Shown here one piece after another: positions 26,107 through 29,827 of a stretch of 31,147 nucleotides of DNA. The first letter of the stretch is position 1. Every line of letters begins with the position of its first letter. Origin of the DNA: a virus; the UHGV virus genome UHGV-0038737. The stretch is one strand, 5' to 3'. A program made the position numbers and the translations under genes. The notes below the pieces were generated by a model, which saw only the letters and a list, made by a program, of their open reading frames with translations, had not been told where the DNA came from and ran no database searches.

Positions 26107-27009
26107 TTAAGACTGGATATTCCAAATCATTGCGTTACCGTTATGATTTTCAATGATTTTTGCCAGTGGTGCTCCACCAAAAGAATGCATGTAGCTGTGA
26201 TGTATAGTCAAAACCAAATCTTGAAGTACTTGATCACTTTCAAGTTCGGTAACATTCAACCCAATTTTCTGCGCCTTATCAAAATGAATATGACGCGAGT
26301 GGGTATAGGTTGTGTGATGGTTGTTTAACTCTGAACAAACATGTGTTGCTTTTGATTCTGCCTCAGGATCATTATCAAACATGCCTGTCATAAGCCAATG
26401 CTTAACAATCTCATTTGCCCATTTGATTGCTTTCTCACACTCGCCGATGATCGTCGGGTTTAGCTTTTGAAGAATGAACTGCCACATCTGAACAGCTGCG
26501 GGATTTTGAAAAATTTCCGTCTGCGCACGATTCCATTCTTCAATGATGGCATGGGTGGAGAAACCGTTGAACTGAGGATCAATTGGGCCAATGTTGGACT
26601 GTTTACCCATGATGATTTCATTGGCACAACATGCAAGCATAGTTCCGCAGGACATTGAAATCATAGGAACAATTGCTCTGATGTTAGTTCCAAACTTCGA
26701 CCTTAAGTAATGCCCGATTGATTCCAAAGCGGCAATATCACCACCTGGAGTATGAAGTATCAAATCCAACCCTTTTGATACATCTAAACCATTGATGGCT
26801 GTCATCAACCCGTTCTTATCATCATCAGTCATCTGAGTAAGATGGCGTACTTCTGCACCACCATGCTGTAACCACCCTGAGTAATATGTGATTACATTTC
26901 TTCCAGTATGATTCGAAAGTTGAGATAAGTATTTACGGCGAACCTCATCCATAGGACTTTTATGGGCGAGAGCCGTTATCTCGCCCAGTACGTCGCTCCA
27001 ATTAGGCAT
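26107..27009 (-). CDS. ClpP-fold serine protease, SDH / S49-like family
   Basis: Motifs GLDLILHTPGGDIAALESIGHYLRSKFG, IRAIVPMISMSCGTMLACCANEIIMG and GPIDPQ are characteristic of the ClpP/crotonase-fold SDH serine proteinase family as recalled. AT-rich gene, translationally coupled to the upstream small ORF. Confidence 0.8.
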   Translation of the reverse strand: MPNWSDVLGEITALAHKSPMDEVRRKYLSQLSNHTGRNVITYYSGWLQHGGAEVRHLTQMTDDDKNGLMTAINGLDVSKGLDLILHTPGGDIAALESIGHYLRSKFGTNIRAIVPMISMSCGTMLACCANEIIMGKQSNIGPIDPQFNGFSTHAIIEEWNRAQTEIFQNPAAVQMWQFILQKLNPTIIGECEKAIKWANEIVKHWLMTGMFDNDPEAESKATHVCSELNNHHTTYTHSRHIHFDKAQKIGLNVTELESDQVLQDLVLTIHHSYMHSFGGAPLAKIIENHNGNAMIWNIQS

Positions 27010-27012
27010 AAA

Positions 27013-27213
27013 TCAGTACGTGTAAAGTTGATGACTTGTAGTTTGGTTTTGCTTCGATTGTGTAGCGGTACCTTGTGAGTACCAAACACCTGTGTTTCCA
27101 CTCGTACTAGTTTGCTGTGCCATTACACGAGAAGCGAAGTTGTTAACAGTTTCACCAGTCAACATTTCTGCCGGTTTGATATTGTAAACATCGTAGAACT
27201 CAGCTGGGGTCAT
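27013..27213 (-). CDS. Small protein (66 aa) with Gln/Ser/Thr-rich tail, first gene of the protease operon
   Basis: ORF MTPAEFYDVYNIKPAEMLTGETVNNFASRVMAQQTSTSGNTGVWYSQGTATQSKQNQTTSHQLYTY. Strong RBS AAAGGAG 8 nt upstream. Stop 3 nt before the protease ATG. Confidence 0.6.
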   Translation of the reverse strand: MTPAEFYDVYNIKPAEMLTGETVNNFASRVMAQQTSTSGNTGVWYSQGTATQSKQNQTTSHQLYTY

Positions 27214-27235
27214 AATGATAGCTCCTTTTATAGCG

Positions 27236-27296
27236 CTACATATAGTGCCTGTGCCAAGGGGGACATACTATATGTGCCATTGTTGTCATATTTAAA
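27236..27296 (-). promoter_or_regulatory. Putative promoter/operator region of the small-protein/protease operon
   Basis: Lies between an upstream terminator and the RBS. Contains repeated TGGCAC and ATATAGT-like motifs and candidate -35 (ATGACA) and -10 (TATAGT) elements. Exact promoter not resolved. Confidence 0.3.
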
Positions 27297-27302
27297 TGTG
27301 CA

Positions 27303-27324
27303 AAAAGCCTCAAAAGAGGCTTGA
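27303..27324 (-). terminator. Rho-independent terminator insulating the lysis cassette from the downstream moron
   Basis: Minus-strand RNA AAGCCUC-UUUU-GAGGCUU followed by UUUGCACAUUU. Confidence 0.5.
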
Positions 27325-27583
27325 AAAAGATGCAAAAATACTATCTATGACGTGACTATAGCTACTTACCCACAGTTTATACAAGCCAAAAATGCTAAAT
27401 TCAGATAATCCTATTCGCTGAAAAACTACACAAAAGCTACGTTCATCTTGTCATTAGATAACGTCAGTAACTTTCACTGGATCTAAGCCATTGGTGAAAA
27501 AGCTAATTGCATGATGAAGCACTGTAATGTAGCAGTTGAGGTTGTTAAATGAGAATCACCCTAACAATGTCAACGGACATTAT

Positions 27584-28099
27584 TCATTTTCGTAACTTCT
27601 CAATCTCTCGTATACCCGCCAGGTTATTGTTGCCCTTCTCAATAACAGCCAGCAAAGGTTCAATCCAGAGGACGGCCTGGCAATACGTCATTGAGCTGGC
27701 GGCAGCGGTACTATCATCGGTTGCGTTAGTGTTCCCGGTATCGGGGTGCATTGCGCTGGCACGTAAACGGTACGCGTATTTGAGCAGCCCACCAGCGACA
27801 TCAGCAGGAACAGGCAGATCACAGGTCTTTTCACGTCGGAGAATCTCCCGGTATTCGATGACAGTTTCTTCGGTGCTGGTGTCGATCAGGGAGTTTAGCC
27901 TGTTGGCATGTTCTGCAACCTGATTGAATCGATTGAAGTTGAATGCCTGGGTGGCGATCACCTGCCCCTGCATAGAGTTGTCACTTCGCAGAACGTCGTT
28001 ATCGCTCTGAAGGCGACTGGCGTTGGAGCAACTCTTAGCGAGAGCGACCGAAAGGACAGCAATAACAACAACGCCTATAAGACCCGGATTAATTTTCAT
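27584..28099 (-). CDS. Rz: Rz-like inner-membrane spanin (i-spanin)
   Basis: MKINPGLIGVVVIAVLSVALA N-terminal transmembrane segment then coiled-coil-like region. Starts 1 nt after the endolysin stop. Confidence 0.75.
   Translation of the reverse strand: MKINPGLIGVVVIAVLSVALAKSCSNASRLQSDNDVLRSDNSMQGQVIATQAFNFNRFNQVAEHANRLNSLIDTSTEETVIEYREILRREKTCDLPVPADVAGGLLKYAYRLRASAMHPDTGNTNATDDSTAAASSMTYCQAVLWIEPLLAVIEKGNNNLAGIREIEKLRK
27688..27834 (-). CDS. Rz1: Rz1-like outer-membrane lipoprotein spanin (o-spanin), embedded in Rz, GTG start
   Basis: In the +1 frame inside Rz: (M)KRPVICLFLLMSLVGCSNTRTVYVPAQCTPIPGTLTQPMIVPLPPAQ*, with lipobox LVG-C, Pro-rich mature part and GGGAG upstream. Found by hand translation; not in the ORF track. 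Confidence 0.6.
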   Translation of the reverse strand: MKRPVICLFLLMSLVGCSNTRTVYVPAQCTPIPGTLTQPMIVPLPPAQ

Positions 28100-28644
28100 T
28101 GGTCTAACCCCCAGCACGCCAGCGCGCTTTCCTGGTCCCGTCGCTCAACCTGACCATAGCAGCCATTCTTCTGGCCTTTGGTTAGACGACAATCACGGCC
28201 ACCGTCTTTAATCCACCAGCGGATTGCCTCGCATGCACCGATGCGGTCACCTGCGTTGATGCGCTTATAGAAGGTCGATGGGAAGCATTTACCGGGGCCG
28301 ATGTTATATGGGCAGAAAGAAGCGATACCCGCTTTCTGTGGTTCGGTCAGTGGTACTTTGATATTTCGGTCAACCCACGCCAGCGCCTTGTCGCGTTCAA
28401 TGGCGTTTACCTGGGCGCATTTCTCAGCTGACAGCTTCATGCCCTGTACTACTGGCTTGCCATCAACCATTGTTGCACCACGGCAAATGGTCCAGAGTCC
28501 GCCGCCGTCGCGATATGCTGTCAAGCTGTTACCCTCTTTCTCATCCAGAAACTGATCGAGAATCACGGGTGCGGAAGCCCCGGCAAGAATCAAACCAACG
28601 ACCGCTGCGCTCAATTTATTCTTCAGCTTTAGAGACATAGCCAT
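28096..28644 (-). CDS. Endolysin, T4-lysozyme-like (GH24), with N-terminal signal-anchor-release (SAR) segment
   Basis: MAMSLKLKNKLSAAVVGLILAGASAPVILDQ then DEKEGNSLTAYRDGGGLWTICRG (Glu-Asp-Thr catalytic pattern). Confidence 0.9.
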   Translation of the reverse strand: MAMSLKLKNKLSAAVVGLILAGASAPVILDQFLDEKEGNSLTAYRDGGGLWTICRGATMVDGKPVVQGMKLSAEKCAQVNAIERDKALAWVDRNIKVPLTEPQKAGIASFCPYNIGPGKCFPSTFYKRINAGDRIGACEAIRWWIKDGGRDCRLTKGQKNGCYGQVERRDQESALACWGLDQ

Positions 28645-28894
28645 TGCGCCGATCCTCCCGTTCTTTCCAGCGGAAATACCAGTTCACTGCACAGGTGATT
28701 ACCGTGCATGCGATACCGACAATAATTGCCCAGTCGCTCAGGCTTAACCCTGCAATTCTGTCGGCCAACATCCAGGACACCTCTTTTGCTGTTTTAGCTG
28801 TTTCGGCGTATGCCTTCGCTGATACACCGCAGCCGGTCAGCGTGGTGCCTGTTCCATATGAAAGTCTGCTGTAAATGGTGCTCATTCTGGTCAT
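28616..28894 (-). CDS. Holin (probable pinholin partner of the SAR endolysin) with dual-start motif
   Basis: MTRMSTIYS... (Met1-Thr-Arg-Met4) with transmembrane segment LSDWAIIVGIACTVITCAVNWYF and charged C-terminus. Strong SD GGAGGTGA. Overlaps the endolysin start. Confidence 0.65.
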   Translation of the reverse strand: MTRMSTIYSRLSYGTGTTLTGCGVSAKAYAETAKTAKEVSWMLADRIAGLSLSDWAIIVGIACTVITCAVNWYFRWKEREDRRNGYVSKAEE

Positions 28895-29329
28895 AGCCTC
28901 ACCTCCGATTCTTCGGATGGCGCTGTGTGTGTATGAAAAGGGTCAGGCTTCACGGGCTGGATTTATCAACAAAGCACGTAGCGGATGATCCCCGAGAGGC
29001 CTGAAATAGAAAAGATAGGGCGTACCGGTCAAGATGGCGTGTCGCGTTGAGCTTTCGCTGTTATGATCCTAGTCTGGATTAGTTGCGGCGCCGGCGCTTA
29101 TTATTGGTTTGCCTCATAGGTCTGCATTTCACAGCAATTGAAAGAGTATTCCTCACAGGCCTTGTGCTGCACATCCAAACGCTCTGTCCATTGCGAAAAT
29201 ATCTTGCGATAAGAAGTAATTAAATTTTGACTTTTCATTAGATAAATGAATTTCTGATTGAGGATACTTTCACTAAATGAGATTTTAATGACGAATCTGA
29301 AAGATCAAATTACCTAAAGGATAATCAAA

Positions 29330-29827
29330 GTGAACAATTTTATTCAAGCTTTAGATGTTTCGATTAAAACCCAAAATTGGTACTCAGTATTATTTATATC
29401 GCTTACGCTGCCAGACATTTTCGGGAAGATTGATGAACCAAACAAAGGATCGCAGGCAAGAACTGTTAATTGGTACAACAAGTACATGAAAGATATGTAT
29501 ACACATCATATCGGCCCCGATCGCCTAGAGCATACATTCCTAAGCGGCAACGACTTTTATGCACTTCGCTGCGCATATCTTCACGAAGGAAGTGACGATA
29601 TTAGAAATCAGAGTGCTCAAGATGTTTTAGAAAAATTTGAATTCGTCCAGCCAATAAGTAATCAAAGCCTACACTGCAACCAATTTAATCAAATGCTTCT
29701 ACTGCAGGTTGATCGATTTGGGAAAGATGTGATGTCAGCTGTTGGCTCATGGCTAAAAGATATTGAGGGTGATGTAGAAAAAACAAACAAACTCAATGAG
29801 TTATTAAAAATAAAAATAATACCATGA
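29330..29827 (+). CDS. Hypothetical 165-aa protein, antisense AT-rich moron between Q and the holin; possible HEPN-like fold
   Basis: GTG start with AAAGGA RBS. Very AT-rich relative to flanking phage DNA. Contains an R-x4-H motif (R80-CAYL-H85). Confidence 0.55.
   Translation: MNNFIQALDVSIKTQNWYSVLFISLTLPDIFGKIDEPNKGSQARTVNWYNKYMKDMYTHHIGPDRLEHTFLSGNDFYALRCAYLHEGSDDIRNQSAQDVLEKFEFVQPISNQSLHCNQFNQMLLLQVDRFGKDVMSAVGSWLKDIEGDVEKTNKLNELLKIKIIP

Follow-up and report, generated by a model that had tools for sequence, protein, structure and literature searches.

Within the i-spanin (Rz-type) gene of the virus genome UHGV-0038737, analyzed here as a single stretch of 31,147 nucleotides (nt) that we call the window, lies a second open reading frame (ORF) that is very probably a real, expressed gene encoding the o-spanin (Rz1 equivalent) of a two-component spanin. 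The assignment is based on a lipoprotein pattern in the product, a reading frame that is under selection, a conserved GTG start with its Shine-Dalgarno (SD) sequence, location in a lysis cassette and near identity to an o-spanin that has been catalogued. A sequence-only reading of this DNA had proposed an embedded Rz1 o-spanin at this site, and the i-spanin host gene, the lysis cassette, the lipoprotein signal and the selection data all support that proposal. The strand of the nested gene, which is the minus strand, went unstated in that reading. Coordinates of the features are collected in Table 1.

The ORF listing gave 27834..27688 on the minus strand as a GTG-start ORF of 48 amino acids (aa) with the product MKRPVICLFLLMSLVGCSNTRTVYVPAQCTPIPGTLTQPMIVPLPPAQ, the identical peptide to that which the earlier reading had placed inside Rz. 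The ORF occupies nt 265–411 of the 516-nt Rz gene and is thus fully nested, and as its start is 265 nt into Rz (265 mod 3 = 1), it is in the +1 frame. The earlier reading had also described a lipoprotein signal peptide followed by a proline-rich mature peptide, and both descriptions held. The peptide passed the PROSITE PS00013 pattern together with both of its side rules, Cys17 being the lipobox cysteine and K2 and R3 lying within the first seven residues, and seven of the 32 predicted mature residues are prolines. The hydrophobic core of the signal (residues 5–16) has a mean Kyte-Doolittle hydropathy of 2.84. By the sorting rule of the E. coli Lol pathway, a lipoprotein lacking Asp at the +2 position goes to the outer membrane. 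The residue that follows Cys17 is Ser and hence the Asp inner-membrane retention signal is absent. A further cysteine, Cys29, matches Cys29 of lambda Rz1 in its position along the precursor and is a candidate for a homotypic intermolecular disulfide, by analogy with the lambda data of Berry et al. as summarized by Kongari et al. 2018 (BMC Bioinformatics 19:326, PMC6139136).

Relatives of the locus were gathered from IMG/VR (80), from species-representative genomes (51) and from several phage records. Codon-position diversity was determined for 66 distinct close relatives, position 1 of the Rz codons being position 3 of the Rz1 codons. Upstream of the overlap the mean diversities at Rz codon positions 1, 2 and 3 were 0.056, 0.039 and 0.163, and downstream of the overlap they were 0.170, 0.053 and 0.483, as compared with 0.203, 0.046 and 0.057 inside it. 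Rz third positions are about 3–8-fold less variable within the overlap than outside, and as the diversity peak within the overlap is at Rz position 1, the wobble passes to the nested frame over precisely the stretch in which that frame is open. In the same 66 relatives the Rz Cys93 and Cys140 codons had zero diversity at their first and second positions. The shift in wobble was also seen in a wider alignment of 109 distinct sequences, which extended from Escherichia to Pantoea and Brenneria and down to about 50% Rz identity. Diversity at position 1 exceeded that at position 3 in 32 of the 48 overlap codons versus 12 of the 94 codons outside (Fisher p = 1e-10, Mann-Whitney p = 1.5e-13). All 109 sequences had an Rz1 frame free of internal stop codons and all had stops in the third frame. 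Over the same DNA, column conservation was 0.90 for Rz1 versus 0.80 for Rz.

The peptide itself was found to be strongly conserved. Among 89 distinct o-spanin 48-mers, Cys17 and Cys29 were invariant, the lipobox was in every case LVGC, LAGC, LTGC, LSGC or LMGC, and the +2 residue was Ser (85 peptides) or Thr (4 peptides), but never Asp. Tyr24, Leu36, Pro43 and Pro45 were also invariant and most other residues of NTRTVYVPA-C-PIP were conserved in at least 90% of the peptides. The mature length was 32 aa in 139 of the 140 loci that carry this o-spanin. Given these patterns of variation, the nested frame is, by the evidence of its relatives, a translated gene under purifying selection.

A nested ORF of this kind might be a non-translated by-product of the Rz sequence that by chance looks like a lipoprotein gene, and neither gene callers nor the NCBI Prokaryotic Genome Annotation Pipeline (PGAP) called it. 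Some of its properties are indeed readily produced by chance. When Rz was recoded synonymously 20,000 times, a nested ORF running from start to stop over 48 codons or more arose in about 32% of the recodings, and one of the PS00013 type in 1.9%. Recodings in which such an ORF also contained at least 20% proline amounted to 0.035%, and the test is conservative because the Rz protein that it retains has co-evolved with Rz1. Chance does not account for a wobble periodicity that shifts to the nested frame exactly within its boundaries, for the depressed variability of Rz third positions there, for a frame that stays open in every distinct relative and encodes a peptide better conserved than Rz, or for the invariance of the two cysteines and of the lipobox. 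The diversity and conservation of the relatives effectively refute the by-product explanation, the probability of which we consider negligible.

The sequence-only reading had put the start at the GTG, and conservation of this codon in 81 of 81 close relatives together with the SD sequence that precedes it upheld that choice. The GTG at 27834 is most likely the o-spanin start. It is the first ATG, GTG or TTG to follow the upstream stop of the nested frame in the window, the open +1 segment beginning 17 codons before it, and it covers positions 2 and 3 of the Rz Arg89 codon and position 1 of Glu90. The anti-SD duplex calculated for this GTG (−7.4 kcal/mol) ranks among the top 4% of Rz positions, versus values of −0.9 kcal/mol for the GTG at codon 5 and +0.6 kcal/mol for the ATG at codon 12. 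Initiation at either internal codon loses the charged n-region of the signal peptide, whereas the GTG at 27834 alone keeps the charge. The GGGAG SD sequence is conserved in the relatives, and Kongari et al. had marked the identical one in HK225 and in mEp237.

Across the 140 loci the start codon was GTG in 130 and ATG in one, and the remaining nine had a non-start codon at this position. The sole ATG (locus L126, Enterobacteriaceae bacterium UBA3516, DFPL01000067.1) is paired with a change of the Rz Arg to His (CAT) and may be read as a natural experiment that supports this codon as the initiation site. As we read the overlap, Arg (CGT) at Rz position 89 permits only a GTG start and an ATG start needs His (CAT), although this does not constitute a hard block. 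The idea that an ATG would create a stop codon in Rz and thereby force the use of GTG was ruled out, as ATG merely changes Arg89 (CGT) to His (CAT).

The start site also provides the first of several points that weigh against our interpretation. Distant relatives (Serratia, Hafnia, Pantoea and ZF40) have no start codon at this site and have to initiate at a TTG or ATG further upstream, and hence the start position is not fixed across the family. The nine loci with a non-start codon (Serratia, Pantoea and others) have TTG or ATG 2–16 codons further upstream. Moreover, the 10-nt spacing between the SD sequence and the start lies towards the upper limit of what is usual. These observations would suit a real gene with translation that begins elsewhere, whether at a non-canonical codon upstream, within the open +1 segment, or internally at the GTG of codon 5. 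The distant relatives would then initiate at TTG at −24 or −18 or at ATG at −28 or −32, relative to the Cys, and some close relatives (L007 and L047) also have an in-frame upstream TTG or ATG. However, the window has no ATG, GTG or TTG between the upstream stop and the GTG, and the internal GTG would give a 12-residue leader that lacks Lys and Arg and would have only the feeble SD duplex given above. Given also the retention of GTG in the close relatives, its replacement by ATG in one distant relative and the choice of the same GTG by two independent manual annotations, we consider a different start improbable.

The other points on that side of the balance concern the identity and function of the product. 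In a search of Pfam-A with hmmscan (E ≤ 1) the only family returned was LysC (PF23793, "Rz1-like lysis system protein"), which scored 15.6 bits versus a gathering cut-off of 27 (E = 0.015), o-spanin residues 12–45 being aligned with profile positions 1–32 of 69. Hence, the lambda Rz1 model was not matched in that search, and NCBIfam also gave no match to the o-spanin. The HK225-family i-spanins lack a predicted coiled coil and their o-spanin is predicted to be beta-strand (PMC6139136), which makes the transfer of mechanism from lambda less secure than the gene call. We found no experimental paper on the HK225 spanin family, the 2018 catalogue alone mentioning the HK225 spanin. Finally, translation, lipidation and the role in lysis rest on sequence logic and analogy. 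On the other side, the peptide weakly matched PHROG phrog_456 (Rz-like spanin; E = 2e-6, 28.4 bits, residues 3–44), a match that is supportive only, as PHROGs lack curated cut-offs. As judged by these profile searches, the o-spanin does not belong by sequence to the lambda Rz1 or P2 LysC families and yet is like them by every architectural criterion tested.

A real small lipoprotein could instead have a role other than that of a spanin, for example Cor-like superinfection exclusion. The peptide has a weak match to phrog_1119 (Cor superinfection exclusion protein; E = 0.13) and a separate cor gene is present in the prophage. The phrog_1119 match, however, covers residues 1–20 only and is thus confined to the signal peptide, and the spanin families phrog_456 and Pfam LysC match better. 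In addition, embedded two-component spanins are diagnosed by obligatory nesting in an i-spanin gene (PMC6139136), which is what the 140 loci show. A non-spanin role therefore seems very unlikely, and the o-spanin assignment is the one that we carry forward.

The closest described systems are those of HK225 and mEp237, which Kongari et al. (PMC6139136) placed with ZF40 in a three-member family having embedded i- and o-spanins. Their supplements list the HK225 o-spanin as MKRPVICLFLLMSLVGCSNTRTVYVPAQCTPIPTDLTQPMIVPLPPAQ (48 aa, 32 mature, SD tcgaataccGGGAGattctccgac) with the notes "not annotated/ putative o-spanin" and "found it emb in Rz", and put the mEp237 o-spanin 265 nt into an Rz gene of 516 nt, the embedded i-spanin having 171 aa. 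The window o-spanin shares with these the 48-aa precursor, the 32-aa mature form and the GGGAG SD sequence, and is nested like those of mEp237 (nt 265 of the 171-aa i-spanin gene) and HK225 (nt 286 of a 178-aa i-spanin gene). The HK225 peptide is identical at 46 of 48 residues, having Thr-Asp where the window has Gly34-Thr35, and the mEp237 peptide is identical at 42 of 48 residues, with DNA that is 97.5% identical across the cassette. In tblastn searches the identities were 93.8% for HK225 and 87.5% for mEp237 (both over 48 of 48 residues), and 73% over 37 residues for ZF40. Unlike those of HK225 and mEp237, the window copy is in an E. coli chromosomal prophage next to yciI and is unannotated there. 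The HK225/mEp237/ZF40 family is known from the bioinformatic catalogue alone. Gene 56 of Escherichia phage LLS (PQ299149.1, "o-Spanin outer membrane lysis protein") is the same 147-nt GTG-start coding sequence nested in an i-spanin gene (VKKPVICLFLLTLLVGCSNTRTVYVPAQCTPIPTSLTQPMIVPLPPAQ) and is 87.5% identical by tblastn, although LLS has an S21-type pinholin/antiholin whereas the window has a 92-aa holin. Hence, the gene model is not new, as it has already been published (HK225, mEp237) and deposited in GenBank (LLS) with the GTG start included.

The window o-spanin resembles lambda Rz1 in its nesting in the +1 frame of Rz, in a late cassette of holin, endolysin and Rz/Rz1 genes, in a Val/Leu-Gly-Cys lipobox with no +2 Asp, and in a proline-rich mature peptide with a single periplasmic Cys at precursor position 29. 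It differs in being shorter (32 mature residues versus a 60-aa precursor and 40-aa mature form in lambda), in having no sequence homology detectable in the Pfam scan, in having dispersed prolines and a C-terminal PLPP rather than a penta-proline run, and in starting with GTG rather than ATG. The partner i-spanin differs from that of lambda in that no coiled coil was predicted in the 2018 survey. With P2 LysC (PF23793) the likeness is a weak similarity over the lipobox and the first ~30 mature residues, but LysC is about twice as long and overlaps LysB without nesting. The rzpQ/rzoQ pair of the K-12 Qin prophage was considered as a curated homologue, as PGAP names nearby lysozymes rrrQ, but was set aside. 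RzpQ is a DUF2514 protein and the 84-aa RzoQ is differently placed, which looks like a different spanin family; the two were set apart by their descriptions.

The function of the o-spanin we infer from the lambda Rz/Rz1 model, as summarized in PMC6139136, and the steps beyond a real gene with a lipoprotein-type signal are likewise taken from that model. A Q-dependent late promoter would give one mRNA for holin, endolysin, Rz and Rz1, and ribosomes would initiate independently at the GTG by use of the GGGAG 10 nt upstream. Following Sec export, Cys17 would be modified with diacylglyceryl, after which signal peptidase II would remove the 16-residue signal peptide and the Lol system would sort the lipoprotein to the outer membrane. 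The proline-rich C-terminal part of the o-spanin would then bind the C-terminal part of Rz across the periplasm, with homotypic disulfides possibly formed through Rz1 Cys29 and through Rz Cys93 and Cys140. Once holin and endolysin had cleared the peptidoglycan, the spanin complexes would disrupt or fuse the outer membrane and thereby complete lysis. In this functional class, loss of the o-spanin is expected to leave spherical, unlysed cells in the presence of divalent cations.

Table 1 Features of the o-spanin gene, its i-spanin host gene and the lysis cassette in the window
Feature	Position	Strand	Basis
o-spanin (Rz1-type) coding sequence, 48 codons plus TGA stop, nested in the i-spanin gene, +1 frame	27688..27834	minus	
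o-spanin GTG start codon (most likely start), overlapping Rz Arg89 (CGT) and Glu90 (GAA)	27832..27834	minus	first in-frame start; conservation
Shine-Dalgarno GGGAG, within Rz codons Arg84-Glu85 and 10 nt before the GTG	27845..27849	minus	anti-SD duplex −7.4 kcal/mol
Predicted o-spanin signal peptide, residues 1–16 (MKRPVICLFLLMSLVG), lipobox L-V-G-C	27787..27834	minus	PS00013 pattern and side rules
Codon for Cys17 (TGC), the predicted lipidated first residue of mature o-spanin	27784..27786	minus	invariance; putative acylation
Predicted mature o-spanin, 32 aa (CSNTRTVYVPAQCTPIPGTLTQPMIVPLPPAQ), 7 Pro (22%)	27691..27786	minus	PS00013 analysis; alignment of relatives
Cys29 codon, candidate homotypic intermolecular disulfide	27748..27750	minus	invariant in 89/89 distinct peptides
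i-spanin (Rz-type) gene, 171 aa, N-terminal hydrophobic anchor (MKINPGLIGVVVIAVLSVALAK)	27584..28099	minus	phrog_214; PGAP coding sequence "hypothetical protein"
Endolysin (phage lysozyme)	28096..28644	minus	PF00959 E = 7.4e-23; phrog_7; PGAP "lysozyme" 28096..28638
Holin, class II, HP1/P21-S-like, 92 aa	28616..28894	minus	PF16080 E = 1.7e-11; PF04971 E = 1.7e-7; phrog_20; PGAP "phage holin"

The window maps to a lambdoid prophage beside yciI that extends from tail genes by way of head and terminase genes to the lysis cassette, Q and rusA, and its lysis region is 100% identical to that of E. coli ECCRA-119. The genes of Table 1 confirm that the prophage carries a complete four-gene lysis cassette. 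The i-spanin was recognized only by PHROG 214 ("Rz-like spanin", E = 1.8e-57), with nothing significant in Pfam and no match in NCBIfam. Endolysin and holin genes lie directly upstream of the i-spanin gene on the same strand. The i-spanin ATG, which is also the start used by PGAP, overlaps the stop of the endolysin gene (ATGA). An overlap of 23–29 nt joins the ORFs of holin and endolysin (28616–28644, minus strand), depending on whether the endolysin ATG is that of PGAP (28638) or of the longest ORF (28644). From its sequence and the annotation of a relative, the hydrophobic, Gly/Ala-rich endolysin N-terminus (LSAAVVGLILAGASAPVIL) looks like a signal-anchor-release (SAR) domain. A SAR-type endolysin would call for a partner of the pinholin type, a class to which the 92-aa holin may or may not belong.

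A scan of 26900–29400 for promoter and terminator consensus sequences found none above the expectation from shuffled sequences and none relevant to Rz1. A candidate hairpin at ~27303–27325 (minus strand), about 260 nt downstream of the Rz stop, has a 7-bp stem (AAGCCUC-UUUU-GAGGCUU) and then a U-rich tail, and the 61-nt region 27285–27345 folds at −12.9 kcal/mol (z = −2.6 versus shuffles). This hairpin, which was not flagged by the simple terminator scan, could be a terminator between the lysis genes and a protease unit. A 66-aa ORF at 27013–27213 (minus strand) gave a full-length match to phrog_25714 (unknown function, E = 3.9e-44) and ends 4 nt before the start of the gene for an SDH-family Clp-fold serine protease (26107–27009). 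It lacks a PGAP annotation in the identical E. coli record and is probably a second missed small gene, part of a unit of two genes located between KilA-N and the lysis cassette.

The sequence-only reading had further claimed that automated callers can miss a nested gene of this type, and the claim was borne out, as PGAP/RefSeq annotates no nested gene at the locus. A default ORF length cut-off of 60 aa would hide the 48-aa ORF. In the PGAP annotation of ECCRA-119, Rz is a "hypothetical protein" and Rz1 is unannotated. This Rz type is present in 219 of 5,426 complete E. coli genomes, and in all 40 rows sampled across those 219 genomes Rz was likewise a "hypothetical protein" and Rz1 unannotated. 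The RefSeq records of mEp237 and HK225 also lack an o-spanin gene, and 196 of the o-spanins described by Kongari et al. had not been annotated at all (PMC6139136). In a collection of 15 billion proteins the exact Rz protein is found on 273 contigs under the name "hypothetical protein", and the six common alleles of the o-spanin that were looked up are all missing from it. When the 48-aa peptide served as the query of a homology search, only four called proteins came back, and three of them are frameshift or deletion chimeras. In two of these (P0002 and P0004) the sequence opens in the Rz1 frame and continues in the Rz frame, which suggests frameshifts, and the third (P0003) has an S21-like holin N-terminus joined to an Rz1 C-terminus, which points to deletion of the endolysin gene and the front of Rz. 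The three chimeras are probably from decayed prophages or are assembly errors.

Ten rows of the 40-row E. coli sample (H92–H101) have an Rz match that breaks off at nt 323, within the Rz1 coding region, immediately next to a gene for a tail fibre or tail protein, which suggests a shared cryptic-prophage deletion that destroyed both spanin subunits. Two Serratia phage records, MT843276 (L084 1012–1335) and MT843275 (L086 1003–1326), do contain a "lipoprotein Rz1 precursor", of about 107 aa and read from a CTG codon that lies 60 codons too far upstream. As the lipobox of these proteins is about 75 residues in, the annotated start is over-extended, and a TTG 24 codons before the Cys, which is preceded by GGGGAAAG, is a more plausible start.

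The value of these findings is practical rather than conceptual: they provide a quantified example of a real gene omitted by standard pipelines and a correction to annotation, and a profile for this i-spanin/o-spanin pair in annotation resources would mend hundreds of records. One further reading bears on mechanism. A 32-residue o-spanin that is predicted to be beta-prone, an i-spanin with no predicted coiled coil, and the better conservation of the o-spanin frame in the overlap raise the idea that the HK225-type spanin disrupts the outer membrane in a manner different from the collapse of a coiled-coil hairpin proposed for lambda. We consider this idea unlikely, but if it were true, the very short o-spanin lipopeptide would serve as a minimal model of how spanins fuse membranes.

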